Below, one piece after another: positions 1,371 through 52,400 of a stretch of 64,000 bases of DNA. The stretch covers positions 3,641 to 67,640 of the forward strand of contig DASPSV010000012.1 of NCBI GenBank assembly GCA_035623755.1. The letters are read 5' to 3'. How positions within the stretch are numbered: position 1 is the stretch's first letter; each line of letters begins with the position of its first letter. The translations under genes and the position numbers were made by a program. The DNA comes from Gemmatimonadales bacterium (GTDB lineage Bacteria > Gemmatimonadota > Gemmatimonadetes > Gemmatimonadales > JACORV01). The notes under the pieces were generated by a model. That model had not been told where the DNA came from and did not search any database. It saw nothing but the letters and a program-made list of their open reading frames with translations.

Positions 1371-1538
1371 CGTTGCGAGACGCCGAGTCACGAGCGGTTG
1401 CGAGGGGGGGAAGCGGGGGCGGCCGGGACCCGTCGGGGGCCGGCCCGGCGGGGTCGCGGAGCCCCCGACTCTCGCCTTTTGGGACCCATCTTCCTATTTT
1501 GTGCGGTCGGTAAGCCGTTCCCAACTGCGAGGTTAGTC

Positions 1539-2854: not shown

Positions 2855-4473
2855 GACTCCGGCGAGGACTCCTCGGGCTTCTTCTTGGACCGGCCCCGGC
2901 CGGTCGGGCGGCGGCCCGCGCCGCCCCGGATCCGCCGGCGCGCCCGGCCCTTCGACTCGGCGGGCGGCTCGGCCGCCTCCGGCGTGTCCGGCGTCTCGAC
3001 CTCCACCATCCCGACCATCGGCACGCCCGCCGCCGGCGCGTGCGGGTGCACCGACCCCCGGCGGTACCGGATCCCGCGCGCGTGCCCCGTGGGCGCCGGC
3101 GCGGACGGCGGCGCCGGAGCCGCCGGCGGCTCGGCAGCGGTGGCGGCCGGCGGCTCCGCCGCGCCCGCCCCCCGTCCCCGGCCCCGGCCGCGGCGGCTGC
3201 CGCGACCGGTGCGCGCCTCGCCCGCCGGCTCCTGCGCGGCTTCCTCCACCGGCTCGCCCGCCGCCTCGGCCCGCAAGGCGACCTCGAAGCCGCGCTCGTT
3301 CTTGGAGAGGTCCACGAGGTCCGCGTCGTGCGCCTGGCGCAGCAGGCGCCCGAAGCGCGGCCGGTGGAACAGCGGATCCTGCGCGCCGCCGTGCATCGCC
3401 TCCATCCGCTCGCGCACGAGGTCCTCGTTCACCGCGGTGGGCGCGAACGCCCCGACCTCGCGGAGGGCCCGCTTGAGCAGGTCGAACGCCTCGGCCAGCG
3501 ACAGCGTCCCGGCTCCCGCCGCGGCTCCGGCCGTCCCCGCCTCGGCCGGCTCCGGCGCCGGCTCGCCCGCGGCGCCACGCCCGCCGCGACGGCCCCGGCG
3601 CGAGCGCCCGCCGCCGGCCGCCCGGGCCCGGTCGTGCTCGGCCCGCTCCTGCCCGCGGCGCTCGTCGGCCCCGCCCGGAATCGGCGGCAGCGCCCGCTCG
3701 CCGCCCGGCGCCGTGGCGCCGAGGTCGATCTCGTACTGTCCGTTCTCGAGCTTGGTCGCGGTCAGCAGGCCGCGCCGCTTGGCCTCGTCCACGAACTTGG
3801 AGAACCGGCTCATGCCGACGTTCTTCTCGTCGAACGAGTCGTCCAGCTCCTGCATCACCTGCTTGAGCCGGTCCGAGCGCATCACGTCGTTGCGCTTCTT
3901 CATCTCCAGCACGGCGTCCACCACGAGCTCCCACGGGTCGCGGCGCTGCGTCTCGCCCTCGCCCTCGCGCGCCAGGCCGGCGAGCTCGTTGTAGGAGTAG
4001 TACTCGTCGCAGTTCTGGATCAGCAGGTCGGACGCCGACTCGCGGATGCCGACGCCGATGATGTACTTGCCGTACTCCTTGAGCTTGATCACGAGCGACG
4101 AGAAGTCCGAGTCGCCCGACAGCAGGATGATGGTCCCGATCTCGGGGCGCGTGAAGACCAGCTCCACGGCGTCGATGGCCAGCCGGATGTCGGTGGCGTT
4201 CTTCTTGTTGGAGCCGAAGGCCGGCGCGAAGATCAGGTCGATCGACGCTTCCGACAGCGGCACGATGTACTGCGGGTAGCGGCGCCAGTCGGCGTACGCC
4301 CGCTGCACCGCCACCTTCCCCCGGATGATGTCCGAGTTCATCAGCTTCCGCAGCTCGACCTGCAGGTCGGAGCGGATGCCCATCGTCACGTTGTCGAAAT
4401 CGATCAGCAGCGCGGCATTCGGCGCGTGCGCCGGCGGCTGTTTGCTCGCCGGACGCGGTGTCGGAAAGGTCAT
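2851..4473 (-). CDS. NYN/LabA-like (PIN-fold) protein with two OST-HTH/LOTUS-like domains and a long Arg/Gly/Pro/Ala-rich tail
   Basis: I used the ATG at 4473 inside the 1075-aa composite ORF. The product starts MTFPTPRPASKQ...LLIDFDNVTMG...ILLSGDSDFSSLVIKLKEYGKYIIGVG (NYN). Two helical OST-HTH-like modules follow, then low-complexity RGRGRGRG/PAAP sequence. Confidence 0.8.
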   Translation of the reverse strand: MTFPTPRPASKQPPAHAPNAALLIDFDNVTMGIRSDLQVELRKLMNSDIIRGKVAVQRAYADWRRYPQYIVPLSEASIDLIFAPAFGSNKKNATDIRLAIDAVELVFTRPEIGTIILLSGDSDFSSLVIKLKEYGKYIIGVGIRESASDLLIQNCDEYYSYNELAGLAREGEGETQRRDPWELVVDAVLEMKKRNDVMRSDRLKQVMQELDDSFDEKNVGMSRFSKFVDEAKRRGLLTATKLENGQYEIDLGATAPGGERALPPIPGGADERRGQERAEHDRARAAGGGRSRRGRRGGRGAAGEPAPEPAEAGTAGAAAGAGTLSLAEAFDLLKRALREVGAFAPTAVNEDLVRERMEAMHGGAQDPLFHRPRFGRLLRQAHDADLVDLSKNERGFEVALRAEAAGEPVEEAAQEPAGEARTGRGSRRGRGRGRGAGAAEPPAATAAEPPAAPAPPSAPAPTGHARGIRYRRGSVHPHAPAAGVPMVGMVEVETPDTPEAAEPPAESKGRARRRIRGGAGRRPTGRGRSKKKPEESSPES

Positions 4474-4481
4474 GGACTCCT

Positions 4482-6050
4482 TCAAGAGGCTGTGTGTTCG
4501 AGCGCCACGACCTGCGCCAGCTCCCGGCGCTTCACCTTGCCGCTGGCCGTCAGCGGCAGCGCGTCGAAGAACCGGACCAGGTCGGGCACCTTGTAGTCGG
4601 CCATCTGCTTCCGGGCGAACTCGGTGATGTCCTCGCCCCGGAGGATGGCGCCCTCGGTCGGTACCACGCAGGCGCACACCATCTCGCCGAGGATCTCGTG
4701 GGGGATCCCCACCACGCAGACTTCCTCGACGCCCGGATGCGCCCGCAGCACGTCTTCCACTTCGCGGGGGTAGATGTTGGAGCCGCCGCGGATGATCATC
4801 TCCTTGCGGCGCCCCACGATCCGCACGTACCCGTCCGCTTCCAGCATCGCCAGGTCGCCGGTGAGGAAGAACCCCTCGGGCGTGAACGACCGCCGCGTCT
4901 CGCCCGGCATCCGGTGGTAGCCCGCCATCACGTTCGGGCCCCGCACGGCCAGCTCCCCCACCGCTTCCTCGCCGTGCAGCTCTCCGGTCGTGACGTCCAC
5001 GATCTTGAGCTCCACGCCCGGCAGCGCCCGCCCCACCGTCTCCGCGCGGTGCACCGCGGAGTCGTCCGGCCGGGTGATGGTCACCGTGGGCCCGGTCTCG
5101 GTCAGGCCGTAGGCGATCTCGACGTCGCAGACGCGCCGGACCGCCGCCAGCAGGTCCGGCGGCACGGGGCTGCCCGCGACGATCCCGGTCCGCAGGGCCG
5201 GCAGGGCCGCGCGCGTGAACCCGCGCTCCCGCGCCAGGAGGTGGAACGCCGTCGGCACGCCGTGGCAGACGGTGACCCGCTCCCGCGCCATCAGCTCGAC
5301 GGTCGCGGCGGGCTCGCCCCGCTCGTCGAGCACCAGGGTGGCGCCCGCCGCCAGCGCACCGGCCACCACGCTGGCGCCGAAGATCGTGAACAGCGGCACC
5401 GCCGCCAGCACCACGTCCGCCTCCGTGAGGCGCAGCACCTCGTTCACCGCGGCCGCCGTCCCGACCACGTTCCGGTGCGTCAGGCACACGCCCTTGGGCT
5501 TCCCCATCGTGCCCGACGTGTAGACGATGGCCAGCAGCGCGTCGGCGTCGCGCGCCGCCGCCGGCGTGGCGAGCGCCGCCCCGCGCGACACCAGGTCCCG
5601 GTACGGCAGCACGCGATGGTCCCAGTAGTCGCCGCCGCCGACCGCCACCACGGACCGCAGGTCGGGCAGGTCGCCGAACAGCCCGTCGAACAGCTCGACG
5701 AAGTCCCGGCCCGCATGGCTCTCGGCGGTCACCACCACCGACGCCTCGGCATGGCGCAGCTGGTAGGTGAGCTCGTGGTGCCCGAGGCCCGGGTTCAGGG
5801 GGACCAGCGTGGCGCCCAGGCGCGCCGCCGCCACCGCCGCGGCGAGCCACTCCGGCCGGTTGGGGAGGTTGACCGCGATGGTGTCGCCGGCCTCGATGCC
5901 GAGATCGGCGAGCGCCGCGGCGAGACCCTCCGCCTCTCGGCTCACCTGGGCGTAGCTCTGCCGGCGCTCGCCGGCCACGGTGCACGGCCGGTCGGGGGAG
6001 CGCGCCGCGGCGGCCTCGAACACGTCGGCGAGATGAGCCGAGCCCAGCAC
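4482..6050 (-). CDS. AMP-dependent synthetase/ligase (acyl-CoA synthetase, FadD-like)
   Basis: 522-aa ORF with the AMP-binding motifs [24 protein letters not shown] and the C-terminal lysine context (SGKVKRREL). Confidence 0.85.
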
Positions 6051-6148
6051 AGTGCCCCCGGTGATGCCCAGCTTTCAATGATACTCAGGCGTCCGATGCG
6101 GAGCCAGCATCGGGCAAGGGCACAGTACCTAAGTGCCCGTGAACAGTG

Positions 6149-6290
6149 AAGTTGCCATACGCCAAGTTGTCAGTGGTTCCAAGCCGCCAGGCGTGAAGGG
6201 GCCAGTCCAGATGTCAGGTCTGGCAACTGGACTGGCCCTCGACCGCTCCCGTCTTGTAACCACTGTTCCCTTGCCGTCTGGCAACTGACC
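6149..6290. repeat. about 140-bp palindromic MITE/REP-like element, copy 1
   Basis: Terminal inverted repeats AGTTGCCA(T/G)ACG(C/G)CAAGTTG ... C(TT)GCCGTCTGGCAACTGACC, with a central hairpin GGGGCCAGTCCAG...CTGGACTGGCCC. It is clearly similar by eye to 21167-21306 (identity not computed). Confidence 0.7.
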
Positions 6291-6347
6291 GGCCCACCGC
6301 CAGTTCTGCTCACTTGAGACTGATGCAGCCGCCCCTAACTTAGCCTC

Positions 6348-7564
6348 GTGGCTCTGGCCTTCCGCCGCCGCATCTTCGTGTGGCTCGTCGCGGTCGCGGC
6401 GATCCCTGCCGGCGTCGGCATCGGCATGGCCCTGCTCGCGCCGCGACTCGCGGCGCCCGTCGGCGGCGTCGCCGCGTGGGACCGCGCGGCGGCGACGTGG
6501 CTCGAGGCCCAGCGGTCGCTCGCCCGCCAGCCCCTGACGCCGGCCGCGCGCGAGGCCCTGCGCCGCCACGCCGACGAGCTCGGCGCGTCCCTCGGCCGCG
6601 CCCGGCAGAGCCAGGCCATCCGCGACTCGTTCCTCCGCGTGCTCGCGGGCCTCGCGGCCGGCCTGGCGGCGCTCGTCGCGCTCGGCACGGTCCGCCTCGC
6701 CGGCCACCTGTCGCGGCAGCTCTCCCGCCCCATCGACGAGCTGATCGCCTGGACCGGCCGCCTGACGCGCGGCGAGCCGCTGCCCGACGCGCCGCCGGCC
6801 AAGGGCGCCCCCGAGTTCGACGTGCTGCGCGCCGCGTTCCGGGCGATGGCCGCGGACCTGGCGGCCGCGCGCTCGCGCGAGGTCGAGGCCGCCCAGCTCC
6901 GCGCCTTCCGCGACCTCGCGCGCCAGGTCGCCCACGAGCTGAAGAACCCGCTCACGCCGCTGCGCTTCGCCACCCAGCGCCTCGCCCAGGAGGCGCGGCC
7001 CGACCAGCGCGAGCTGCTCGAGATCGTCGAGGGCGAGAGCGAGCGCATCGAGCAGATGGCGCGCGACTTCGCCACGCTCGGCCGGCTCCCGGAGGGGCCG
7101 CCGGCGCCGGTGGACCTCGCCGAGCTGATGGAAACGCTGGTGAAGGGGACCGTGCCGCCCGGGATCGCGGTGCGCATCGAGCGCGCGCCGGACCTGCCGC
7201 TGGTGAGCGCGCACTACGAGCCGCTCCGCCGCGCCCTGCACAACCTCGTGCTCAACGCCTGCGACGCCTGCGAGGAGCGGCGCGCGGGCGCGCGGGCGCG
7301 CGGCGAGATCGCCGTGACGCTGCGGCCGGTGCCGAACGGCGCCGCGCCGGCCGTGGAGATCGCCATCCGCGACACCGGCGTCGGCATCCCGCCCGAGCAG
7401 CTCGGGCGCGTCTTCGAGCCATACTTCACGACCAAGGCCAAGGGCACGGGCCTCGGGCTGGCGCTGGTGCGGCAGACGATCCACGACCACGGCGGCTCGA
7501 TCGGCGTCGCCAGCGAGCCCGGCCGCAGCACCACCTTCACGGTCACGCTGCCGGTGACGCGCCC

Positions 7565-7568
<4 letters not shown>
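6348..7568 (+). CDS. membrane sensor histidine kinase (2 TM + HAMP + HisKA + HATPase_c), NtrB/AtoS-like
   Basis: N-terminal TM (IFVWLVAVAAIPAGVGIGMALL), a second TM/HAMP region, H-box VAHELKNPLTPL, N-box NLVLNACDA, and G-boxes DTGVGIP and GTGLGLALV. GTG start. Confidence 0.85.
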
Positions 7569-8941
<1,373 letters not shown>

Positions 8942-14611: not shown

Positions 14612-14890
14612 TGCGCCGTCTCCGTGGAAGTGAAGTGGTCTGAACGGTAGCCCTGCATGCCCGGCACTTGGTACCCCGCCCGCCGCCGACGAATCCCTTC
14701 GCGTGCGCGGGTCCCCGGAGGCCGGCCGAGCCGGCCGCCGGCCCCCCTCTCGGACCCGCCTGAAAACCTGTCGCAATCTGTCCATCCTGACTTTGTGAAT
14801 TCGGACACAAGAGATATGCTTAGTGAGGATCAACTGGCTTGGAGCATCATAAATACCTGTACCACAACATGTTAGACCATCTCAGACAGC

Positions 14891-14906
14891 TGGCATGGCC
14901 AATGCT
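14891..14906 (+). promoter_or_regulatory. sigma-54 (-24/-12) promoter of the multihaem cytochrome cluster
   Basis: TGGCATGGCCAATGCT versus the consensus TGGCAC-N5-TTGCW. GG is at 14892-93 and GC at 14904-05 (exact 12-nt offset). It sits in an unusually AT-rich stretch about 100 nt upstream of the 15007 start. Confidence 0.6.
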
Positions 14907-15006
14907 ACCACGTCCGTATGACTACCTAGGCCCAGCCACTACGGGTACGGGCGCTGAAATCCTGGGACGTGCAACGAAAACGGAACGGATGCGCGAGGAA
15001 CGGCTC

Positions 15007-16509
15007 ATGAGACATTCCCTTCGGTTCGGACACGTGGTGCTCGGGGCGGCGTTCGCCCTGGTGGCGGCGGGGTGCGTGAAGGACACCACGACGGCGCCCA
15101 CCGGGACGACGAAGCTGGCCGGGGCGGTCGTCGGGTACAGCAACCCGGCGACGAAGCTCACGACCTGCGGCAACTGCCACGTCCTCAAGCAGGCGAGCTG
15201 GATCCAGACCGGCCACTCGAACGCCTGGAAGGACCTGCAGGCCAGCGGCCACGCGAGCGCCGCCTGCAACCAGTGCCACACGACGAGCGCCTACTCGTTC
15301 GGCGGCGCGGACAGCGCGGGCTTCTTCGCCGCCACCGCCTCGAACCAGAACTACTTCCAGGACGTGCAGTGCGAGGCGTGCCACGGGGCCGGCCAGGCGC
15401 ACGTGACGACGCCCGACGAGACGCAGCCGGTCGCGTACCTCGTCTCCCGGGACACGACCAAGGGCGTGGGCTGCGGGATGTGCCACAGCGGCCCGCCGCA
15501 CAACCCGTTCTACGAGGATTGGTCGCGCGGGGCCCACAGCGTCATCGAGGCGCCGGCGATCTCGAACACCAGCGGCACCTGCCTGCAGTGTCACGAGGGC
15601 AAGACGGCGGCGATGCGGTTCGGGGCGAGCAACGTCTACGTCGAGAGCGGCACCACGACCGCGATGCAGCTCGGCTGCACGACCTGCCACGATCCGCACG
15701 GCAGCCCGAACACGCACGAGGTGCGGGCATCGATCACGGTCGCCGACACGACCAACCTGTGCATCCAGTGCCACAAGCGCCGCTCCATCCCGGACCTGAC
15801 CTCGGCCAGCGGCCCGCACTCGCCGCAGGGCCCGACGTTCCTGGGCACCTCGGGTTGGCGGCCGGCCGGCTTCACGTGGGATTCGACCAGCGTGACGACC
15901 CACTCGAACCCGTCCTCGAACCCGCAGCTGTGCGCGACCTGCCACGTCGCGACGCTCGACGTGAACAACGCGAAGGGCCAGCTGGCGTGGCACTACACCG
16001 GCCACAGCTTCTACGCGATCCCGTGCGTGGACACGGCCGGCATCGACTCGACCAATTCGTGCGACGTCTCGGTGCGCAGCTTCGCGGCGTGCGCCACCAG
16101 CGGCTGCCACGCGTCCGAGGCGGCGGCGCGCACCGTCTTCCAGTCCACCTCGAACGAGCTGCAGTTCCTCGCCGGGCTGATCTGGACCGACGTGAACGGG
16201 AACGGCAAGATCGACTCCGCGGACACGGGCCTGCTGACCAAGGTGGCGGCCACGGAGTTCAAGACCCGCAGCGCCACGGTGAACAACACCCTGCCGTACA
16301 CGGTGGCCGAGGGCGGGCGGTTCAACGTGCAGCTCATCGCCAACGATCGCTCGCACGGGGCGCACAACGCGCCGTACCTGCGGTCGCTGCTGGTCGCCAC
16401 GATCCAGGCGCTGAAGACGCAGTACGGGCTGGCGGCCCCGGCCGCCGATGAGGCGCGGGTCGCGTCGATCGCCGCCCGGTTGGGTGTCCGCATCGCCGCC
16501 ACGCGCTAG
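15007..16509 (+). CDS. lipoprotein multihaem c-type cytochrome (8 CXXCH + 1 CX4CH)
   Basis: The ATG at 15007 gives MRHSLRFGHVVLGAAFALVAAGC (lipobox LVAAGC). Haem motifs: CGNCH, CNQCH, CEACH, CGMCH, CLQCH, CTTCH, CIQCH, CATCH and CATSGCH. It also has a DVNGNGKIDSAD calcium-binding (dockerin/EF-hand-like) loop. Confidence 0.85.
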   Translation: MRHSLRFGHVVLGAAFALVAAGCVKDTTTAPTGTTKLAGAVVGYSNPATKLTTCGNCHVLKQASWIQTGHSNAWKDLQASGHASAACNQCHTTSAYSFGGADSAGFFAATASNQNYFQDVQCEACHGAGQAHVTTPDETQPVAYLVSRDTTKGVGCGMCHSGPPHNPFYEDWSRGAHSVIEAPAISNTSGTCLQCHEGKTAAMRFGASNVYVESGTTTAMQLGCTTCHDPHGSPNTHEVRASITVADTTNLCIQCHKRRSIPDLTSASGPHSPQGPTFLGTSGWRPAGFTWDSTSVTTHSNPSSNPQLCATCHVATLDVNNAKGQLAWHYTGHSFYAIPCVDTAGIDSTNSCDVSVRSFAACATSGCHASEAAARTVFQSTSNELQFLAGLIWTDVNGNGKIDSADTGLLTKVAATEFKTRSATVNNTLPYTVAEGGRFNVQLIANDRSHGAHNAPYLRSLLVATIQALKTQYGLAAPAADEARVASIAARLGVRIAATR

Positions 16510-16571
16510 TCGGGGCGGGCGGGTAGGGACCGGCGCCGGATTGCCCGGCGCACGATGCCCAGCGAAGCTTC

Positions 16572-16603
16572 AGCGGGTCGGTCCTCACGGGGGCCGACCC
16601 GCT
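16572..16603 (+). other. intercistronic stem-loop between cytochrome genes
   Basis: AGCGGGTCGG-(12 nt)-CCGACCCGCT, a 10-bp perfect stem followed by TGCTGT. It lies in the 131-nt gap between 16509 and 16641 and could be an attenuator or mRNA-processing/stability element. Confidence 0.3.
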
Positions 16604-16640
16604 TGCTGTCCGGGCACTTCGGCACGGTGATCGAGCAGGC

Positions 16641-18305
16641 ATGACGCGATACTACGAGTGGGTCCAGAGGGAGTGGCGGCGCCTGGCGCCGGCCTGGCGC
16701 ATCGGCCTGGTGGCCGGCGTCACGCTGGTGGTGGCCGCGGCATCGGTGGCCGGCTACCGGCAGTGGAACTACATGCAGCACGACAACCGCTTCTGCACGT
16801 CGTGCCACCTGATGGTCGATCCCTTCCAGCGGTTCAGCCGCAGCGCCCACGCGAAGCTCCAGTGCCACAACTGCCACGAGGGACGCATCCCCGAGCAGCT
16901 GCACCAGCTGTGGATGACGGCGGTGGAGCGCCCCACGGCCATCGGCCGCCACGCCCGCGTGCCGAACGAGGTGTGCGCCCGGTGCCACATCTCCGGGGAC
17001 TCCACCAAGTGGAAGATCATCGCGGCGACGGCGGGCCACCGGATCCACCTCGAGTCCAAGAACCCGCGGCTCGCGGGCATGCGGTGCGTGGAGTGCCACG
17101 GGGTGTCGCTGCACGAGTTCGCGCCCGTGGATCGCACCTGCGGCCAGGCGGGGTGCCACGACCACAACACCATCCACCTCGGCCGGATGGGGCAGCTCAC
17201 CGAGCTGCACTGCACCACCTGCCACAACTTCCTCGCCCAGGCGCGCACCTTCGCGGTCGACTCCCTGGGCAAGCCGCTCACGCCCGCGGCCGCCCAGTGC
17301 CTGTCGTGCCACGCGATGCAGCAGAAGATGGCGCGGATGGACATCGGCCGGGATCCGCACAACGGCGTGTGCGGGGACTGCCACAACCCGCACACCCAGA
17401 CCAAGCCGCAGGACGTCAGCTGCACCACGGCCGGGTGCCACGCCGGCTGGCAGCGCGTCAGCTTCCACGTCGGCGTGCCGCACCCCGACCGCTGCACCAC
17501 CTGCCACCAGCCTCACAGCTGGCGGGTGGAGGGCCAGAACTGCACGCGCTGCCACGCCAACATCCCGCGCGAGACGCCGTCCCGGGGCCGCCGCGTGACG
17601 CTCGGTCCACGGACCCGGCTGGAGGCGCCCACGGCCGTCGCGGATTTCGCCGCCGCGGGGCCGACGTGGCTGCCGCAGGAGCCGCTCCAGGGGCCGACGC
17701 GGCCGGCGCCGGCCGCGGGCGCGGGCGCGATGCCGCGCTTCTCCCACGGCGACCACCGCGGCCAGTCCTGTGCGGACTGCCACTCGAGCCGGCTGCGCCA
17801 CGGCGAGCTGCTGGTGCGCTCCGCGGCGGACTGCCAGCGCTGCCACCACTCCGCGCCCGAGCGCACGCAGTGCGCCGCCTGCCACGACGTGGCCGCGCTC
17901 GGCCGGGCCGTGCTGCAGCCGCTGCGCACGTTCCCGATCGCGGCCGGGCACGAAACCGTGACGCGGCGGCTCCCGTTCGAGCACCAGCGCCACGCCACCG
18001 TGCCCTGCGTGCAGTGCCACACCAACCCCGTCTCCCGCGCGCCGGACGGCGCGGACTGCGCGTCGTGCCACGCCCCGCACCACCGCGCCGCGGCGAACTG
18101 CGTCGCGTGTCACGCCGGCGCCAACGCCCTGGCCGGCCACAAGGCGGCGGACCACCCGAACTGCGCGAGCGCCGCCTGCCACGGCGCGCGCGCCGCCAAC
18201 CTGCCGGCCACCCGCGAGCTGTGCCTCGCCTGCCACACCACGCAGGCCCGGCACGTGCCCGGCAAGCCGTGCGAGCAGTGCCACAAGGTCATGGCCCGGA
18301 GCTGA
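16641..18305 (+). CDS. membrane-anchored NapC/NirT-type multihaem cytochrome extended to 20 haem motifs
   Basis: N-terminal TM (WRIGLVAGVTLVVAAASVAGY), followed by FCTSCHLM...SAHAKLQCHNCH, the NapC/NirT/CymA signature. In total 17 CXXCH plus 3 CX4CH (CGQAGCH, CTTAGCH, CASAACH), as in class III (c3/c7) cytochromes. Confidence 0.85.
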   Translation: MTRYYEWVQREWRRLAPAWRIGLVAGVTLVVAAASVAGYRQWNYMQHDNRFCTSCHLMVDPFQRFSRSAHAKLQCHNCHEGRIPEQLHQLWMTAVERPTAIGRHARVPNEVCARCHISGDSTKWKIIAATAGHRIHLESKNPRLAGMRCVECHGVSLHEFAPVDRTCGQAGCHDHNTIHLGRMGQLTELHCTTCHNFLAQARTFAVDSLGKPLTPAAAQCLSCHAMQQKMARMDIGRDPHNGVCGDCHNPHTQTKPQDVSCTTAGCHAGWQRVSFHVGVPHPDRCTTCHQPHSWRVEGQNCTRCHANIPRETPSRGRRVTLGPRTRLEAPTAVADFAAAGPTWLPQEPLQGPTRPAPAAGAGAMPRFSHGDHRGQSCADCHSSRLRHGELLVRSAADCQRCHHSAPERTQCAACHDVAALGRAVLQPLRTFPIAAGHETVTRRLPFEHQRHATVPCVQCHTNPVSRAPDGADCASCHAPHHRAAANCVACHAGANALAGHKAADHPNCASAACHGARAANLPATRELCLACHTTQARHVPGKPCEQCHKVMARS

Positions 18306-18307
18306 CG

Positions 18308-19705
18308 ATGCGCCACCGGTTCCCTCCCGTCGCCGCCGCGCTGCTCGGCCTCGCCGCCGCGCGCGCGCCCGCGCTCCGCGCCCAGCAGTTCCTGGTGCAC
18401 GGCACGACCACGTCCCAGTTCGTGCAGCTGCGGCCGATCCAGTTCGACCCCACGGCCAACTTCGACACCGGGGCCTTCGTGGCGCTGCCGGCCACCTACG
18501 CCGCGCCGTTCACCCAGGACGTCGAGCTGTCCGCCTGGGGCCTGGGGATCGACGGCCTGCGCGCGTATGCGCTGGTGCGGGGCCGCGCCGCGCTCGGCTC
18601 CGGGCTGGTGTGGCCGGAGTCCGACGAGCACTTCCAGACCCTGTACGCCTACCTCGAGCTCGAGCGCACCCACTACCTGTTGCGCGCCGGCCGCCAGCAG
18701 CGCGCGTCCGGGCTCGGGTGGTACGCCTTCGACGGGCTGACCGCGAGCTGGCGGCCGCTGGCGGCGGTGCGGATCGAGGGCTACGGCGGCCGCGGGCTGG
18801 CGCGCGCCTCGCTCGACGCCCCGAACGCCTCGGCCATCACCTCGCTCGACCCGCTCCAGCCCGACCAGGGCACCGTCCTGCTCGGCGCCTCGCTGTGGGC
18901 GGCGCCGTCGGCGCGGTCGAGCTTCTCGGCGATCTACCAGCGCGAGCTGCTGGCCAACCAGAGCGGCCTGGTGTCGGAGCGGGCCGCCTTCGACGGCCGC
19001 CTGGGCCTGGGCTCGCACCTGGTGCTCGCCGCGTCGGCCGACGCCGACGTGGCGCGGCAGCAGTGGGGCAAGGCGCGCGTCAGCGCGACGGTGCTGCTGG
19101 GCGGCGCCTCGGTCGTGCTCGAGGCGTTCCGGTACCGGCCGACGCTCGACCTCTCGACCATCTGGGGCGTGTTCTCGCCGGAGTCCCACGACGGGTACTC
19201 GGCGACACTCATCCTGGCCGCCGCGCGCGACGTGTCGCTCACCGGCGCCTTCACCTACCGGCGCTGGCAGCCGCTGAGCATCGGCTCCCCGTTCCTCGTC
19301 GACGTCGGCAACGACCAGAAGGAGGCGACGGCGGGCGTGCAGGTGCGGCAGGGCGCCTGGACCTTCGACGGCGACTACCACCTCGAGCTGGGCTTCGGCG
19401 GCGACCAGAGCGCGGGCGACCTCCACGCCGCCTGGTCGCCGGGCGGCGGCTGGCGCGCGGGCGTCTCGACCAGCGCGTTCCAGCAGACCGATCTGTTCCG
19501 CGTCTCGGGCGGCACCGTCTACGGCCTCGGCGCGGACTTCGGGACGGCGCTCGACCGCCGCGTGGCGCTCAAGGTCGACGTGACGCGCTACTTCCAGCGG
19601 CGCCAGACCGGCGCCACCGGCGTGGACTGGAACCAGACCCGCGCCTCGGTCACCTTCGACTGGACGGTCGGCGCGGACGCCGATCGCGTCGGGAGCTACC
19701 GATGA
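18308..19705 (+). CDS. predicted outer-membrane beta-barrel (porin-like partner of the cytochromes)
   Basis: The ATG at 18308 lies 2 nt after the previous stop. Signal peptide MRHRFPPVAAALLGLAAARAPALRAQQ. The protein has no cysteine and many amphipathic strand-like segments (YAYLELERTHYLL, VRIEGYGG, WTFDGDYHLELGFGG, ALKVDVTRYF, ASVTFDWTV). Confidence 0.6.
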   Translation: MRHRFPPVAAALLGLAAARAPALRAQQFLVHGTTTSQFVQLRPIQFDPTANFDTGAFVALPATYAAPFTQDVELSAWGLGIDGLRAYALVRGRAALGSGLVWPESDEHFQTLYAYLELERTHYLLRAGRQQRASGLGWYAFDGLTASWRPLAAVRIEGYGGRGLARASLDAPNASAITSLDPLQPDQGTVLLGASLWAAPSARSSFSAIYQRELLANQSGLVSERAAFDGRLGLGSHLVLAASADADVARQQWGKARVSATVLLGGASVVLEAFRYRPTLDLSTIWGVFSPESHDGYSATLILAAARDVSLTGAFTYRRWQPLSIGSPFLVDVGNDQKEATAGVQVRQGAWTFDGDYHLELGFGGDQSAGDLHAAWSPGGGWRAGVSTSAFQQTDLFRVSGGTVYGLGADFGTALDRRVALKVDVTRYFQRRQTGATGVDWNQTRASVTFDWTVGADADRVGSYR

Positions 19706-21144
19706 TCGCCCGCGCCGCCTCCGCCCTGCTCGCGCTCTCGGCGCTCCTGGCCGGCGCGTGGGCCCCGCGCACCGTGCGACCGCGTCCCGCCGCCGGCGCC
19801 CGCGCGGCCGCCGACACGTTCCCGCACGCGCGGCACGCCAGGCTGTTCACCACCTGCGCGGCCTGCCACGCCGGGATCGCGACGGGCGACACCGCCGAGG
19901 TCTGGCCGTCGCCGGAGCTGTGCGCCGGCTGCCACAACGGGGACCTGGCCCGCACCGTCAGCTGGACGCCGCCGCCGCCGCGGGCCACCAACCTGACGTT
20001 CGAGCACGTGCCCCACGTGGCCATGTTCGAGGCGATGGACAGCGGCGGTCCCAACTGCCAGAAGTGCCATGCCGCCGCAGACTCGCAGCCGTTCATGGAC
20101 GTCGGCCGCGCCAACCCGGAGCGTTGCGTCTCGTGCCACGGCCAGGGCGCGCCGAGCCACCTGGCCCAGCAGGCGTGCGAGCCGTGCCACACCACCCTGC
20201 ACGACGCCGCCGCCCTCGACGCGGAGGCGATCCGCGGGTTCCCGAAGCCGCCCTCGCACGACTCGACCTGGGTGCTGGGGCACCGCGGCGCGGCGACGGG
20301 CACGACCTGCGCGGTGTGCCACGCGCAGCAGTTCTGCGCGTCGTGCCACGTGAATGCGCGCGCCGTCCAGGCCATCCGCGACCTGCCGGCCGACGACCGC
20401 GTGGCCGCGCTGGTGCGCGGCCGCACCGCCGGCTATCCGCGCCCGGCCTCGCACGCCGCCTCCGACTGGACGCGTCGCCACGGCGTGCTCGCGCGCGCCG
20501 GCGCCGGCGAGTGCGCGAACTGTCACGCCCAGGAGTCGTGCCTGGGCTGCCACCGGATCCAGGAGCGCGTGCCCGCGATCGCGACCCTGCCCCGGCGCGC
20601 CCCCGGCGGCGCCTTCGGCGTCGATCTCGCGGGCCTGCGGCCGGCCGACCACCTGCCCGACCAGCGCCTGCATCACCGCGAGATGGCGGCCGGCGGCACG
20701 GCGAGCTGCGCCACCTGCCACCGGCCGTCGTACTGCACCACCTGTCACGCGGCCGCGAAGGCGCCGGGCTTCCACGGCCCGAACTTCGTGCAGCGCCACG
20801 CCATGCAGGCGTACGCCGCCGAGGCCGAATGCGCGGCGTGCCACCAGGTGCAGGTGTTCTGCCACGACTGCCACCAGGTGCTCGGGCGTTCCAACGCCAC
20901 GGCCCCCGCGTCGGCGAATTACCACGACAGGCAGCCCGGCTGGCTGTTCGGGCACGGCGGCGTCGCGCGTCGCGCGATCGAGACCTGCGCCAGCTGCCAC
21001 GCGCAGGACTTCTGCCTCCGCTGCCACTCGGCCACCACCGGCCAGCACATCAACCCGCACGGCGCGGGCTTCAACCCGTCCGTCGCCGGGAAGAACCGGG
21101 CGATGTGCCTGATCTGTCACACGACAGGCATTCCGACGCAGTGA
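19702..21144 (+). CDS. secreted multihaem c-type cytochrome, 16 CXXCH (doubled-CXXCH type)
   Basis: The ATG at 19702 overlaps the previous stop (ATGA). Signal peptide MIARAASALLALSALLAGAWA. There are 16 CXXCH motifs, including five paired units such as CAVCHAQQFCASCH, CANCHAQESCLGCH, CATCHRPSYCTTCH, CAACHQVQVFCHDCH and CASCHAQDFCLRCH. Confidence 0.85.
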   Translation: MIARAASALLALSALLAGAWAPRTVRPRPAAGARAAADTFPHARHARLFTTCAACHAGIATGDTAEVWPSPELCAGCHNGDLARTVSWTPPPPRATNLTFEHVPHVAMFEAMDSGGPNCQKCHAAADSQPFMDVGRANPERCVSCHGQGAPSHLAQQACEPCHTTLHDAAALDAEAIRGFPKPPSHDSTWVLGHRGAATGTTCAVCHAQQFCASCHVNARAVQAIRDLPADDRVAALVRGRTAGYPRPASHAASDWTRRHGVLARAGAGECANCHAQESCLGCHRIQERVPAIATLPRRAPGGAFGVDLAGLRPADHLPDQRLHHREMAAGGTASCATCHRPSYCTTCHAAAKAPGFHGPNFVQRHAMQAYAAEAECAACHQVQVFCHDCHQVLGRSNATAPASANYHDRQPGWLFGHGGVARRAIETCASCHAQDFCLRCHSATTGQHINPHGAGFNPSVAGKNRAMCLICHTTGIPTQ

Positions 21145-21166
21145 TCAGTCGGTCGGTGGACCGGAC

Positions 21167-21306
21167 AGTTGCCAGACGGCAAGTTGCCAGCGGTTGCAAG
21201 ACGGAAGATCCGAGGGGCCAGTCCAGTTGTCAGTACTGACGACTGGGCTGGCCCCTTACGTCTTGCGTCTGGTAACCACTGACAACTTGCCGTCTGGCAA
21301 CTGACC
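21167..21306. repeat. about 140-bp palindromic MITE/REP-like element, copy 2
   Basis: CAGTTGCCAGACGGCAAGTTG ... CAACTTGCCGTCTGGCAACTG are near-perfect 21-bp terminal inverted repeats. The central hairpin is GGGGCCAGTCCAG...CTGGGCTGGCCCC. The element fills the gap between the convergent stops at 21144 and 21310. Confidence 0.7.
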
Positions 21307-21309
21307 GCT

Positions 21310-22563
21310 CTACGGCGTCCTGCTCACTCCCACCCTCTCCGCCCGTCGCCGCGCATACGCCGCGGCGCCCACCGCCGTCGCCACCGGCGCCACCACGGTG
21401 ACGATCCACAGCACCGGCACGCTGAGGCCGAGCTCGGTGCCGAACCCGGCGAGCGAGAGCGCGAGGAACAGCACCAGCACCGCCAGCCCGAGGGCCAGCC
21501 GCCGCGGGCCGGCCGTCGGCGCCTCGGCGTAGTAGAGCGTCGACGGCGTGCGGTCGAGCCACGGCACCAGGACCACGAGCAGGCTGAGGATCCCCGGCAC
21601 CAGCATCGCGCCGATCGCCTCGGGCCCGATGGTCGCGCCCAGCACGCGCACGCTGAGCGTGCCCGGGATCAGCCGCAGCGCGCCGTAGACCCACAGCAGG
21701 TACCAGTCGGGCTTCACGTCGGGCGTCGCCGGCTGCGGCGGTCCGAAGTAGGCGGACGGGTGCACCGGCAGGAAGGCCGCCAGCGCCGCGGCGACCGCGA
21801 CGATGACCAGGAACAGCACGCCCATCAGCGCCGTCTGCTCCGGCCACAGCGGGATGCCGCGGATCCACTTGCCCTCGGCGGCATCGGCGCGCGCCGCCAC
21901 GCCGAACTCGGTGTGCTTCTGCTTCAGCACGATCACGAGGTGCAGCGCGATCAGCGCGCTGAGCGCGAGCGGCGCCAGCACCACGTGGTAGGCGAAGAAC
22001 CGCGGCACCGTCTCCGGCGACGGGAACTGGCCGGCGAACACGTAATCGGCGAGCGTCGGCCCGATCCACGGCACCGAGCGCGCGATGCCGTAGCCGATCG
22101 CGGTGGCGGTGACGGAGAACTGGTCGTAGGGCAGGAGATAGCCGGCGAACGACGCCGCGATGGTCATGCCCAGGAGGCCGAGCCCCAGCACCCAGTTCGC
22201 CTCCCGCGGCCGCTTGTACGACGCCGTGAAGTAGACCCGCAGCAGGTGCAGCACCACCGAGGCGATCATCAGGTGCGCCGCCCAGTGGTGGATCCGGCGC
22301 ATCAGGGCGCCGAACGGGTGGGCGTCGATCGCCAGCGTGCTCGCGTACGCGGCCGGCAGCCGGCCGCCCTCGGCCGCCACCGCCGCCGCCGACGGCTCGT
22401 AGAACAGGGCGAGGTACAGGCCGGTGCCCACCAGCACCACGAAGCAGAACAGCGCGATCTCGCCGAAAAAGAAGGTCGAGTGGACCGGGAACGGCTTGCC
22501 GAGGTACTTCGCCCGGAAGCGCTCGAGCGCGAGGCGCTCCTCGAACCAGCGGGGAATCGTCAC
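21310..22563 (-). CDS. cytochrome b (long form: b6-like plus subunit-IV-like regions), Rieske/cyt b complex
   Basis: 417 aa. The N-terminus WFEERLALERFRAKYLGKPFPVHSTFFFGEIALFCFVVLVGTGLYLALFY is QcrB/PetB-like. It has conserved His-bearing helices (RRIHHWAAHLMIASVVLHLL, FFAYHVVLAPLALSALIALHL) and about 9 predicted TM segments. Confidence 0.9.
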   Translation of the reverse strand: MTIPRWFEERLALERFRAKYLGKPFPVHSTFFFGEIALFCFVVLVGTGLYLALFYEPSAAAVAAEGGRLPAAYASTLAIDAHPFGALMRRIHHWAAHLMIASVVLHLLRVYFTASYKRPREANWVLGLGLLGMTIAASFAGYLLPYDQFSVTATAIGYGIARSVPWIGPTLADYVFAGQFPSPETVPRFFAYHVVLAPLALSALIALHLVIVLKQKHTEFGVAARADAAEGKWIRGIPLWPEQTALMGVLFLVIVAVAAALAAFLPVHPSAYFGPPQPATPDVKPDWYLLWVYGALRLIPGTLSVRVLGATIGPEAIGAMLVPGILSLLVVLVPWLDRTPSTLYYAEAPTAGPRRLALGLAVLVLFLALSLAGFGTELGLSVPVLWIVTVVAPVATAVGAAAYARRRAERVGVSRTP

Positions 22564-22576
22564 GGCGCCGTGCCCC

Positions 22577-23149
22577 CTAGGCCTTCACGCCGACCGGCGC
22601 GGAGAAGGCGCCGGCCACCAGCACCTCCCCCTTGTCGTTCAGCTTGATGGGCAGCTGCGGCAGCGGGCGCGGCGGCGGGCCGCCGAGCACGACCCCGCCG
22701 CGCTGCGGGTCGAACATGGCGCCGTGGCACGGGCAGTGGATGTGGGGGAACGGCGCCTGGTCCATCGGCTCCTCGGAGAAGCGCACCGTGCAGCCGAGAT
22801 GGGTGCAGATGGCGCTGTAGGCGACGACGCCGTGCGCCGTGCCCGCGAGGTCCACCGGCGGCTTGAGCGCCGCCGGATCGAGCTTGCACACCAGCACCAG
22901 GTTCTCGTGGTTGTCGGACTTGCCCTCGGGATAGGCGAGGACGGCCTCGTTCTGCGTGAAGCTGCCCTCGGTGATCGCCTGGCCGGCGTTCTGCCCGAGC
23001 GCGAACACCAGCCGGTCGCCGGCCTCGACGCCCTTGGTCGCCGCCGAGCGCGAGCGCCCCCGCAGCGTCAGGACGCCCGGAATCACGGAGGCGATCGCCG
23101 CCACGATGGCGGTCTTCAGCGACCTCTCGGCGAACCGTCTACGATCCAC
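22577..23149 (-). CDS. Rieske [2Fe-2S] subunit, Tat signal
   Basis: MDRRRFAERSLKTAIVAAIA is a twin-arginine leader. The cluster boxes are CTHLGCTV and CPCHGAMF. Confidence 0.9.
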   Translation of the reverse strand: MDRRRFAERSLKTAIVAAIASVIPGVLTLRGRSRSAATKGVEAGDRLVFALGQNAGQAITEGSFTQNEAVLAYPEGKSDNHENLVLVCKLDPAALKPPVDLAGTAHGVVAYSAICTHLGCTVRFSEEPMDQAPFPHIHCPCHGAMFDPQRGGVVLGGPPPRPLPQLPIKLNDKGEVLVAGAFSAPVGVKA

Positions 23150-23203
23150 GCGTCTCCCTCCACCCGCCCTGCCGCGGCGCTCCGCGCGGCCGCGGCGCCG
23201 TCG

Positions 23204-24205
23204 TCACCACGGGATCCCGTCGTCGCGCTCGGCGCGCGTCGTCTCCCAGCGCACGAACGCCCGGCTGTAGAGCACCACGACCCCGGCCAGCGCGAGCATG
23301 CCCACCGCCAGCGCCAGCCCGAGCACCCACACCGGCCAGGCGAGCACCACCCCCACCGCGAACGAGCCCAGCGCCGCGAGCTCGAGCACCATCATCACCA
23401 CCGTCAGCGCCACCGCGACGGCGGTGCGCTCGTCCTCGTGGGCCGCGGGCTCCGCGGTCCGCCCTTCCGCCCAGCTCGAGGCCACGCCGTGCAGGCCGAT
23501 GATCAGCAGGATCGCCATCCACGCCGCGATCATGATCTGCACGTCCGTGAGATGGTCCGGCAGCAGCGCGCCGGCGCCGGCGGCCGCCGGCGGACCGTTG
23601 AACATGTCCAGCAGCGCCACCGCCTTGTGGCCCTCGACGTGGTACGCCATCAGGTCCGGCGACTCGGACGACGCCATGATCACGTGCATCTGGCCCGCCA
23701 CGATCGGGCGGTCGGTGCTGTCGTGCGCCGCCAGCGGCCGCTCGAACTCGATCGTCGTGCCCGCGGCGGTCCTGAGGCCCGCGCTGCCCAGGATGTCGTC
23801 GTGCCCGCCCAGCGCGGTGTCGGCGACGTGGCTGGTGGGCGTGTTCGCGTAGTGGTCCTCGACGTGCGCCCCGTGCGCGTCCACGTAGCCGATCACGATG
23901 TCCGCGCCGTACATCAGCGGCCCCTCGCCCCCGAAGCCGACCGCGACCCAGCCGGTGTCCGGCGAGGTGACCGCGCCGATCAGCCGGTCCCCCACGATGC
24001 TCCACTGGAACACCAGCTTGCTCGCGTCGTCGGTCCAGCGGAACCGGTACTCCCCGGACGTGACCCGCCCGTCCAGCCGGTGCACCGAGCTCGTGCCCGC
24101 GGCGGACACCAAGCGCTGCGGCAGGTGCAGCGTGAAGGCCAGCAGCACCGCCAGCACGGCCCCGCCGGCCAGGGCCAGCGCGGGAACGCGGTCCGCGTTC
24201 TTCAT
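23204..24205 (-). CDS. DOMON-domain membrane protein (N-terminal anchor, periplasmic DOMON, C-terminal multi-TM region)
   Basis: The ATG at 24205 overlaps the upstream stop (ATGA). DOMON-like core: WVAVGFGGEGPLMYGADIVIGYVD...TIEFERPLAAHDSTDRPI. The C-terminal hydrophobic helices are IMIAAWMAILLIIGLHGV, AVAVALTVVMMVLELAALGSFAVGVVLAW and VWVLGLALAVGMLALAGVVVLY. Confidence 0.7.
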   Translation of the reverse strand: MKNADRVPALALAGGAVLAVLLAFTLHLPQRLVSAAGTSSVHRLDGRVTSGEYRFRWTDDASKLVFQWSIVGDRLIGAVTSPDTGWVAVGFGGEGPLMYGADIVIGYVDAHGAHVEDHYANTPTSHVADTALGGHDDILGSAGLRTAAGTTIEFERPLAAHDSTDRPIVAGQMHVIMASSESPDLMAYHVEGHKAVALLDMFNGPPAAAGAGALLPDHLTDVQIMIAAWMAILLIIGLHGVASSWAEGRTAEPAAHEDERTAVAVALTVVMMVLELAALGSFAVGVVLAWPVWVLGLALAVGMLALAGVVVLYSRAFVRWETTRAERDDGIPW

Positions 24206-25023
24206 CGGCCGCCGCCCGTCCGGCCCAGCCGCGCCTCCAGCGGCGCCGCGTGGCCGAGGGCCATCCAGGCCGCCACCAGGTTCTCGCGCGCGTCGCCCAG
24301 CCGCGCGGACGCCGAGTCGAGGCGGAAGCTGTGCCAGATCTCGGCCGCCGCCGTCAGGTGGCGCTCCGCGTCGTCGAGCATGACCCGCGCCCGGGCGGCG
24401 CCGCGGGCCGTGCGCTGCGCGGCCGCGTCCGCCGACACGACGTCGAACAGGAGGTTCTCCACCCGCACCAGCGCCAGCACCTGCGCCGCCTCCCGTGCCT
24501 TGTCCGGCGGCGCCACGCCGCCGGCCGTGTGGCACGCGGAGCAGGTCTCGAGCAGCCGCTCGGGCGTGAGCACGGACGTCGCCATGGCCCCGTGGCAGGT
24601 CACGCAGTTGGGGCCGCGGCCGTCGGCCCGCAGCCGCGCGTAGTGGATGCTGGTGCGGAAGTAGCCCACCTCGGAGGCGTGGCACCGCCCGCAGGTGTCG
24701 GGCACGCGGATGAAGTAGACGCGACTGTCCGGGTCGGTCGAGACCGCCACGCCGCGGTGCGCCGCCTGCCGGTCGCGCGCCGCCGGATCGCCGCCGTGAC
24801 AGGCCTCGCAGCCCACGCCCGCCGCGGCGTGCGGCGACTTCCGCCACGCGGCGAACCCGTGCCCCGCCCCCGTCGTGTCGGCGAGGCTGCCGTGACACGC
24901 GACGCATTGACTCGCCGCCGCGCGCGATGCGCCCGCGCCCCGCGGCTGCTGGGCGCCGGCCGCGCCGGCGCCGGCCACGGCGCACACCGCGGCCAGCGCG
25001 AACGCCAGGCGTTCCACGGTCAT
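24202..25023 (-). CDS. pentahaem c-type cytochrome, signal peptide
   Basis: Signal peptide MTVERLAFALAAVCAVAGAGAAGAQQ. Haem motifs: CVACH, CEACH, CGRCH, CVTCH, CSACH. Confidence 0.85.
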   Translation of the reverse strand: MTVERLAFALAAVCAVAGAGAAGAQQPRGAGASRAAASQCVACHGSLADTTGAGHGFAAWRKSPHAAAGVGCEACHGGDPAARDRQAAHRGVAVSTDPDSRVYFIRVPDTCGRCHASEVGYFRTSIHYARLRADGRGPNCVTCHGAMATSVLTPERLLETCSACHTAGGVAPPDKAREAAQVLALVRVENLLFDVVSADAAAQRTARGAARARVMLDDAERHLTAAAEIWHSFRLDSASARLGDARENLVAAWMALGHAAPLEARLGRTGGGR

Positions 25024-26815: not shown

Positions 26816-28256
<1,441 letters not shown>

Positions 28257-38829: not shown

Positions 38830-38898
38830 CTCACCTCTCACGGCTTCTGCTTCTCACCTCTCACGTGGACGTCTCACCTCTCACCCCTCACCTCTCAC
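38830..38898. repeat. four direct copies of the 12-mer CTCACCTCTCAC (plus one inverted partial copy at 38814-38822)
   Basis: Exact copies at 38830-41, 38853-64, 38873-84 and 38887-98. The first copy pairs with GGTGAGAGG (38814-22) to form a hairpin after the tyrS stop. The last copy overlaps the stop of the convergent aminotransferase gene. Confidence 0.6.
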
Positions 38899-52351: not shown

Positions 52352-52400
52352 GACTGTGCAGGTCCGCGTCCGCTCGTTTCACTGAATTCATCGAGGTAGC

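Follow-up and report, generated by a model that had tools for sequence, protein, structure and literature searches.

A probable REPIN-like family of dispersed intergenic repeats in Gemmatimonadales, with arms conserved in sequence and placed mostly at gene 3' ends

The stretch of Gemmatimonadales DNA analysed here (64,000 nucleotides, contig DASPSV010000012.1 of assembly GCA_035623755.1, positions 3,641 to 67,640; hereafter the window) carries two long intergenic palindromes and a related single arm. They are members of an old, apparently undescribed family of dispersed intergenic repeats of a Gemmatimonadales clade, very probably similar in kind to the repetitive extragenic palindromic (REP) sequences of other bacteria and to the inverted REP doublets known as REPINs. 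On balance we favour the combined explanation, of identity and function, that an old family of REPIN/REP type is maintained through specific recognition of its sequence at the 3' ends of genes. The kind of element is already known; two features go beyond the routine, namely dialects that switch unit by unit at orthologous positions and arms that constantly bracket a PF05635 gene.

The two palindromes share one architecture, as had been proposed from a reading of the sequence alone. Copy 1 occupies 6138-6299 (extent of the nhmmer profile match, both strands, E 3e-46). Its left arm (6150-6183, plus strand) matches the family consensus and is made of block 1 (AGTTGCCATACGCCAAG, 6150-6166), a 4-nt linker and block 2 (CAGTGGTTCCAAG, 6171-6183); a central hairpin of the type called A below follows (6198-6238, GGGGCCAGTCCAG..CTGGACTGGCCC, no strand assigned), and the right arm, its reverse complement (6253-6286, minus strand, block 2 at 6253-6265 and block 1 at 6270-6286), is an exact match to the arm pattern. 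Copy 2 (21154-21315, found by nhmmer at E 2e-50, as an inverted repeat and by folding) has its left arm at 21167-21200 (plus strand, block 1 21167-21183, block 2 21188-21200), a central type-A hairpin at 21214-21255 with GTAC at the dyad, and its right arm at 21269-21302 (minus strand, block 2 21269-21281, block 1 21286-21302). It forms a gapless inverted repeat of 79+79 nt (21156-21234 and 21235-21313) that is 82% complementary. A repeat search of the window reports 6197-6300 and 21213-21316 as direct repeats of 79% identity, and the two copies aligned together with both reverse complements have a mean column identity of 79%, far above chance. Chance origin is ruled out by oligomer counts: the 18-mer of the outer arm, CAGTTGCCAGACGGCAAG, occurs four times with at most three mismatches where 0.06 are expected, the central 20-mer occurs four times against 0.00 expected, and all eight matches lie inside the two copies. 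A larger segmental duplication is ruled out as well, as the likeness does not continue past the borders of the elements and the genes on either side are unrelated. Neither copy carries an open reading frame (ORF), in line with the sequence-only reading. Its mini-palindrome TTGCC-N4-GGCAA holds for three of the four arms; the exception is the left arm of copy 1 (AGTTGCCATACGCCAAG), where block 1 has G>T at arm position 9 and three mismatches to the 18-mer. Both copies would fold as RNA into very stable structures, far more so than shuffled sequences (copy 1, -80.2 kcal/mol, z -6.7; copy 2, -126.9 kcal/mol, z -15.9).

The family extends well beyond the window. A scan of species-representative genomes with the positions invariant in all four window arms (AGTTGCCANACGNCAAGNNNNCAG) returns at least 111 stretches, almost all from Gemmatimonadales metagenome-assembled genomes (MAGs), and a profile built from the two window copies confirms at least 117 sites among the stretches listed, which disposes of the idea that only two copies exist genome-wide. 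Counts of doublets, single arms and gene contexts refer here and below to the matches listed, at loci (numbered L) fetched through intact arms. On this basis six MAGs carry 8-18 loci each, at least 12 Gemmatimonadales MAGs hold the family, and the sites comprise 68 doublets and about 60 single arms. Pattern matches in Psychrobacter and other organisms outside Gemmatimonadales have a different core, CCATACG, give no profile match and are unrelated. A viral origin was likewise rejected, the ten matches to the arm 17-mer in viral contigs being seed only and at chance level. A metagenome scan with a second arm type, termed GAG below, adds at least 120 further stretches and repeats every feature of the family in an independent sample; this metagenome set holds 192 GAG-type and 18 CAG-type arms and 51 doublets, mostly of 145-149 nt. 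Rfam 15 has no gathering-threshold match anywhere in the window, and at E up to 1 gives only sub-threshold hairpin matches to miRNA precursors, in copy 2. No Gemmatimonadota repeat family of this sort was found in the literature, by topic or by sequence string.

An alignment of 62 full-length copies with their flanks defines the anatomy as a conserved arm, a variable self-complementary centre and the same arm in reverse complement. The arm is about 45 nt long (AGTTGCCAGACGSCAAG..CAGTGGTTNCCAG), not the 20 bp at first proposed for the terminal repeats. It consists of block 1 (AGTTGCCAGACG[C/G]CAAG), a variable linker of 4-6 nt and block 2 (CAGTGGTTNCCAG) followed by NNGNNAG, and its repeating unit is an xAG triplet recurring about every 7-8 nt, AGTTGCCAG-ACGSCAAG-TTGCCAG-TGGTTNCCAG. 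The string TTGCC-AGAC-GGCAA is a palindrome that requires G at arm position 13, where the majority of genomes carry C. The arm is preceded by a leader rich in purines, in which CAG stands at -6..-4 and again at -13..-11; the right-hand side has the mirror image, CTG. Measured from anchor to anchor, doublets fall into discrete length classes of 78-82, 106-114, 135-138 and 141-158 nt, with outliers of 167 and 212 nt; the elements with inverted ~45-nt ends are about 136-160 nt long, and doublets of the form present in the window 136-155 nt. Two centre types dominate. Type A is that of the window (GGGGCCAGWCCAGTTGYCAGTACTGRCAACTGGWCTGGCCCC) and is common to 28 copies of 135-138 nt. Type B (CAGAACAGGCCCCG-loop-CGGGGCCTGTTCTG) resembles a GC-rich terminator stem and occurs in compensated variants (GGCCCCG/CGGGGCC and GGCCTCG/CGAGGCC; AACAG/CTGTT and AAGAG/CTCTT).

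The conserved feature of the arms is their sequence. Blocks 1 and 2 are invariant or nearly so in both arms of 26 copies from 8 genomes, and in the neighbouring orthologous genes identity at third codon positions is only 71%; the variable arm positions have drifted and the blocks have not. Orthologous arms are 0.78 alike, against 0.79 for arms of unrelated loci. The self-complementarity of the divergent copies had been read as a compensated structure. Almost no copy-specific compensation is found, and shuffled partners pair nearly as well as true ones: across the 26 copies with few gaps, pairing holds for 80.2% of cells, against 78.9 ± 0.6% when partners are exchanged at random among copies (observed value reached in 10 of 500 shuffles), and the covariation score is 0.135 against 0.117 (reached in 7 of 500), values of a size that can arise without structural constraint. 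Arm-to-arm complementarity is 0.796 within an element and 0.791 between elements. The arms are thus complementary because both keep the family consensus, not through compensating changes. Pairing of the centre is copy-specific to some extent (0.63 against 0.56), and the excess is found in the centre only. The pairing register is specific, as slid controls pair at 26-43%, and the RNAalifold consensus is limited to the invariant blocks (covariation term +0.09). Two further candidates were rejected: selection at the RNA level through wobble pairs, since G.U and A.C mismatches on the sense strand in tandem contexts number 88 and 74 (p 0.31, no bias), and a palindrome extending into the variable flank, which did not rise above control.

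Comparison of orthologous loci between MAGs, with the elements masked (33 comparisons, flanks 75-92% identical), places the element in both species in 23 cases and in one only in the other 10. The window itself matches metagenome contigs, and its flanks are 79-81% identical to those of the Gemmatimonadales MAG SMAG_U14690, where the orthologue of copy 1 (L004, 5924-6094) has the same divergent position; the locus of copy 2 recurs in three other assemblies. A site of the opposite kind lies at 52335-52393 (no strand assigned), where the window has a convergent gap of 58 nt with at most a faint arm remnant and the orthologous gap of L016 holds a 165-nt doublet (4021-4185). The element of L057 likewise has no counterpart, at the end of the window. 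Junctions without the element are fairly clean (L081 compared with L026, L062 with L106). L081 reads CAGATT-AGTT-CTG where L026 has a full element, as if the core had dropped out between short GTT repeats, much like the central excisions described for REPINs (PMC3337134).

Lineages differ in the state of their arms. At arm position 13 the counts of C and G are 42 and 1 in CAVQXV, 25 and 2 in DATKNX, 22 and 5 in DATKLR, 18 and 12 in CAWIFL, and 2 and 35 in JBEKVZ. Orthologous doublets keep the state of their own genome on both arms (pairs L031/L111, L055/L076, L061/L094 and L090/L107). In the GAG arm type (AGTTGCGAGACGCCGAGTTGCGAGYGGTTNCGAG) the base before every AG has gone from C or A to G, and the four xAG units switch together (GGGG in six arms, GGGA in one, mixed states rare); in the metagenome set 47 of 51 doublets are pure for one type. 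The family is old and mostly vertically inherited, and switches as a set between lineage dialects.

The position of the repeats relative to genes is equally marked. All sites are intergenic, about one per 20-30 kb, with three in the window. Among 62 doublets 28 lie between convergent genes, 29 in tandem and 5 in divergent contexts, compared with 59, 375 and 79 element-free gaps at the same loci (chi-square p 2e-11), so that doublets are over-represented where genes converge and scarce where they diverge. Single arms point in the same direction as the upstream gene in 42 cases and in the opposite direction in 13 (p 1e-4). The median distance from stop codon to arm is 24 nt, and 17 of 119 stops abut or overlap the first AG of the arm. 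The upstream stop is TAG in 66 of 108 arm-adjacent genes (61%) and in 201 of 545 others (37%; p 5e-6). The metagenome set agrees on each count: contexts are convergent in 13 cases, tandem in 22 and divergent in 3; 61 single arms follow the direction of the upstream gene and 25 oppose it; the distance from stop to arm has a median of 26 nt and is at most 40 nt in 106 of 120; and the stop is TAG in 55% of arm-adjacent genes against 38% overall.

Within the window, copy 2 has the typical placement. It fills a 165-nt gap between convergent genes, with arm anchors 22 nt from the TGA at 21142-21144 and 7 nt from a TAG (complement of 21310-21312). Copy 1, between the divergent starts of two genes, belongs to the rarest class, and the promoter-region setting that the sequence-only reading gave for it is correct for this copy and exceptional for the family. 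The third member, which that reading had not listed, is a single GAG-type arm (CGTTGCGAGACGCCGAGTCACGAGCGGTTGCGAG, 1371-1405, plus strand; pattern match, 0.00 expected) that begins right after the TAG stop at 1368-1370, has all four xAG units in the G state and is orthologous to a single arm at L109 2065-2105. It adjoins a GC-rich hairpin ending in a CUUUUG tract (1397-1487, plus strand, -75.5 kcal/mol, z -2.5), so that the order there is stop codon, arm, hairpin.

Two side observations belong here. TAG is the stop of 37-38% of all called genes even away from arms, which is high for genomes of 65-73% G+C. Elements also occur in the spacers of tRNA clusters, a few nucleotides from tRNA ends (L108 738-1345, L112 225-565, L013 120-300).

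We propose that the arm acts as a strand-specific recognition site, and that a trans-acting factor would read its repeated xAG units where genes end. The arms and centre of a doublet would together form an imperfect hairpin of 60-70 bp, in the transcript or in single-stranded DNA. This hairpin may mark, terminate or protect the 3' end, in both directions where genes converge, much as REP/BIME (bacterial interspersed mosaic element) and REPIN sequences do. Marking, terminating or protecting 3' ends is documented for REP/BIME elements. The family may have spread in the past by REPIN-like copying that leaves no target-site duplication, and would now be essentially static. Intact blocks and concerted change at fixed orthologous sites point to a co-evolving reader rather than to ongoing transposition. 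Readings of the family as strict miniature inverted-repeat transposable elements (MITEs), as pure RNA structure or as uptake sequences each fail a defining test.

Several points weigh against this proposal. The 3'-end function, judged from position only, is possible rather than probable, and the trans-acting factor that would read the arms is hypothetical. Copy 1 lies in a divergent promoter region, where a role at 3' ends makes no sense. About half of the doublets stand in tandem contexts, and their antisense second arm is unexplained by a model of one arm per gene. No U-tract terminator is present at either window copy or at L078; the hairpins are there, with no T-run after them. A role through RNA structure alone is made less likely by the lack of a G.U bias and of compensating changes. 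Gene contexts were derived with our own GC-frame log-odds caller, which was checked only against the gene calls supplied with the metagenome matches. The retrieval of loci through intact arms biases conservation upwards, yet the partner arms, which were not ascertained in this way, are equally conserved.

The arms were also considered as promoters. No sigma-70 promoter was found at the elements examined. A sigma-54 promoter (TGGCAAC-N4-CTG, facing outwards from the arms) was rejected, as the -12 GC is not conserved and the motif of a single arm faces back into the gene upstream of it.

The alternative that survives best, although unlikely, takes the arms as sites in double-stranded DNA at which a nucleoid protein, a topoisomerase or an uptake protein binds and which selection or biased recombination keeps uniform, on the model of the dialects of DNA uptake sequences (DUS) and uptake signal sequences (USS) or of gyrase-binding BIMEs. 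Such sites would be conserved in sequence and not in pairing, as is observed, and the lineage dialects that hold at orthologous sites agree with them. So does the enrichment of doublets between convergent genes, where positive supercoils build up. The strand bias of single arms relative to the upstream gene and their fixed position after stops are against it. Density is a further difficulty: DUS and USS occur about once per kb, inside and between genes, and the present repeats, strictly intergenic and about 20-30 kb apart, fall far below that. A DNA uptake sequence in the narrow sense was rejected on the same ground, the window having 3 sites per 64 kb, all intergenic.

Slightly less probable, and doubtful to us, is that the elements are REPINs proper, that is, doublets mobilised by a single-copy IS200-like tyrosine transposase (RAYT, REP-associated tyrosine transposase) encoded outside the sampled DNA. 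The likeness to the REP/REPIN sequences of Pseudomonas and enterobacteria (Bertels and Rainey, PMC3337134) is extensive. Both have short conserved repeats, found alone or in inverted pairs, with a spacer that varies from copy to copy and still forms a hairpin, and spacings fall into a few discrete classes. Both are extragenic, often at gene 3' ends, with hundreds of copies at most, and both combine long vertical inheritance and the lack of a target-site duplication, as in transposition of the IS200/IS605 type, with occasional loss of the centre. The Gemmatimonadales arm differs in being about 45 nt long, in having xAG units 7-8 nt apart and in not being itself a palindrome in most genomes, which have the C dialect. 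No near-identical or otherwise recent copies are found, the phylum, Gemmatimonadota, is another one, and the single-copy gene bracketed by arms encodes a PF05635 four-helix-bundle protein, not a transposase. A crude six-frame screen for HUH plus Y..NP[VLI] across 0.85 Mb of element-bearing DNA found no RAYT-type transposase.

PF05635 is the only gene regularly bracketed by arms. At L017 (3162-3682) and L054 (2510-3030) inverted arms 520 nt apart enclose a small ORF, which in L017 encodes a protein of the PF05635 / TIGR02436 family ("23S rRNA intervening sequence", four-helix-bundle; E 1.5e-25). The nearest solved structure, 2GSC, has no assigned function. In eight further lineages the close homologues (70-89% identical) have the same neighbours throughout, a metallophosphatase gene on one side and a deoxyhypusine-synthase-like gene on the other, and inverted arms ~520 nt apart bracket the gene in all seven lineages in which both sides are covered (for example L118 1890-2411 and L130 1931-2449); in the eighth (L115-L117) the contig ends and only the right-hand arm is present. 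The stop codon of the gene lies inside the inner part of one arm. Arm-gene-arm units of 520-524 nt were found in every lineage examined with both sides covered. In the metagenome set five stretches, at most five loci and one of them the L143 contig, have doublets of 523-585 nt, each enclosing PF05635. At L054 the unit is frameshifted and stands between CorC and PdxA genes, a second and unrelated context. The gene is found in either orientation relative to its neighbours (L118 compared with L130, L151 and L115), as expected from inversion between the arms. At this locus the arms are of CAG type in some lineages and of GAG type in others, and the residue changes D74>H and R101>V/T track the GAG type (5/5 against 0/8); the GAG group is probably one clade, in which case the correlation amounts to one event and proves nothing. 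Many close homologues of the protein sit on contigs of only ~1 kb. This would be expected if the flanking repeats break short-read assemblies.

It is possible, at rather long odds, that the repeats are a REPIN-like population with this four-helix-bundle protein, not a tyrosine transposase, as the cognate single-copy gene. An oligomer of the protein would then recognise one strand of the arm by its xAG units, the specificity of the oligomer would co-evolve with the arms (CAG or GAG, C or G at position 13), and the short doublets would be cargo-less derivatives of the 520-nt arm-gene-arm unit. The family PF05635 / TIGR02436 is known also from the Avd protein of diversity-generating retroelements. 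Its members are described as uncharacterised proteins encoded inside rRNA intervening sequences; RNase III excises these stem-loops, and horizontal spread has been suggested for them (PMC11270868). Such a sequence in 23S rRNA shares with the unit described here a PF05635 gene of ~124 aa within long inverted repeats and a length of ~520 nt. It differs in location, the present unit lying between protein-coding genes and not in rRNA, and the same arms occur more than 100 times without the PF05635 gene, as in the window copies. No rRNA was found in eight low-coding loci, and all copies lie between protein-coding or tRNA genes. If the protein does read the arms, a very widespread protein family whose role is obscure would gain its first functional handle, and rRNA intervening sequences would be linked with dispersed palindromic repeats.

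The sequence-only reading had called the palindromes MITE/REP-like, which stands as far as a non-coding, dispersed palindromic family of this general kind is concerned: the elements are short and non-coding with inverted terminal arms, as MITEs are, and have the inverted doublets, the singlets and the hairpin-forming spacer of REPINs. A strict MITE, that is, a deletion derivative of an insertion sequence that is moved in trans by a transposase through its terminal inverted repeats and is active or was recently so, is improbable. It would account for the small size, the conserved inverted ends, the dispersed copies of fixed length (28 of 135-138 nt) and the presence or absence of the element at 10 of 33 orthologous sites with fairly clean junctions. 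The check for target-site duplications that had been suggested finds none across 66 elements, the longest direct repeat in the flanks averaging 5.41 nt, and 5.50 nt when the flanks are mispaired as a control; the symmetry of the flanks is that of a mirror (CAG left, CTG right), not of direct repeats, and an apparent 12-nt flank repeat at L016 4021-4185 is an isolated case. Pairwise identity among 62 elements has a maximum of 0.84, with means of 0.71 within genomes, 0.68 between genomes and 0.72 for orthologues, so that close copies are lacking. Where inverted arms lie 0.5-3.5 kb apart, no transposase was found among the enclosed ORFs, which are ordinary genes (sialidase-like protein, YraN, arabinofuranosidase, methyltransferase, TPR protein, fumarase), and the crude screen of 0.85 Mb gave none either. 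Single arms are strongly oriented to genes, copies are shared across species, and divergence affects the remainder of the element but spares the blocks, a pattern that selection at the level of the element cannot achieve at a fixed locus.

Least likely of all, and only barely credible, is that covarying base pairs maintain a structured non-coding RNA or an intrinsic terminator. Although the hairpins are very stable and lie at gene 3' ends, and the type-B centres look like GC-rich terminator stems with compensated variants, the family has no Rfam match, no U-tract and no G.U excess on the sense strand, pairing exceeds that of shuffled partners by only 1.3 percentage points, and the RNAalifold structure is confined to the invariant blocks.

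Other known repeats offer partial parallels. The Correia/NEMIS elements of Neisseria and the ERIC/IRU (enterobacterial repetitive intergenic consensus / intergenic repeat unit) sequences of enterobacteria are intergenic palindromes of 100-170 bp that form long imperfect hairpins and are co-transcribed with their neighbours. The Gemmatimonadales family is like them in size, hairpins and intergenic position, and presumably also in being transcribed together with neighbouring genes. It has no sequence similarity to either, and neither was found reported in Gemmatimonadota; Correia elements, unlike the present family, have TA duplications and many close copies. An integron attC site was rejected. 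Such sites run 5' to 3' from RYYYAAC to GTTRRRY and stand in cassette arrays beside an integrase. The ends of the present elements, GTTGCC...GGCAAC, have the opposite polarity, and the copies are scattered among housekeeping genes, with no arrays.

With the short tandemly repeated repetitive (STRR) sequences of cyanobacteria the family shares intergenic units on the scale of heptamers. The likeness extends to tandem arrays in gaps that carry arms, (AGTTGCCAGACGCCA)x4 at L079, (CCCTAAC)x4 at L041 and (TCTCACC)n in the window. Unlike STRR sequences, the arms are fixed composite sequences and not simple arrays, and the units of the two kinds differ in sequence. At L079 (4381-4441) four to five tandem 15-mers of arm block 1 (AGTTGCCAGACGCCA) fill a stop-to-start spacer, and the orthologous spacer at L041 (5034-5106) has four telomere-like CCCTAAC heptamers instead; in two further MAGs a run of the same heptamer follows single arms (near 6600 in L051 and near 4190 in L066). 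At L063 (5833-5872) a heptamer array of GTCAGCC / GTCAGCT runs directly into an arm, which suggests that arms and leaders grow from CAG-containing heptamers. In the window about seven copies of TCTCACC / CTCACCT stand at 38830-38900, after a gene ending at 38792, with the complementary GGTGAGAG upstream.

The family adds a repeat to Gemmatimonadota, a phylum known almost only from MAGs. It may serve as a marker of gene 3' ends and operon boundaries in the annotation of Gemmatimonadales genomes, and in practice the repeats probably break short-read assemblies. It is also informative on how repeats persist, with old copies fixed at orthologous sites, blocks intact and concerted change by lineage.

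The genes beside copy 1 are those named in the sequence-only reading, and Pfam bears it out: an AMP-binding (acyl-CoA synthetase-like) enzyme (4482-6050, minus strand, PF00501, E 5e-91) and a sensor kinase with HAMP, HisKA and HATPase domains (6348-7568, plus strand), transcribed divergently. Copy 2 is flanked by a multihaem cytochrome of 480 aa (19702-21144, plus strand, from Pfam and gene calls) and a cytochrome b (21310-22563, minus strand, PF13631 / PF00033, the exact protein being found on other contigs). The region around it, ~14800-25000, is dense in multihaem cytochrome genes, with Rieske, cytochrome b and DOMON genes, and looks like an extracellular or alternative electron-transfer module. 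Elsewhere in the window, 8438-8671 and 27714-27947 are direct repeats at a spacing of 19,276 nt, unrelated to the palindromes; they lie in two paralogous ORFs, each downstream of a kinase gene, that probably encode NtrC-type response regulators.

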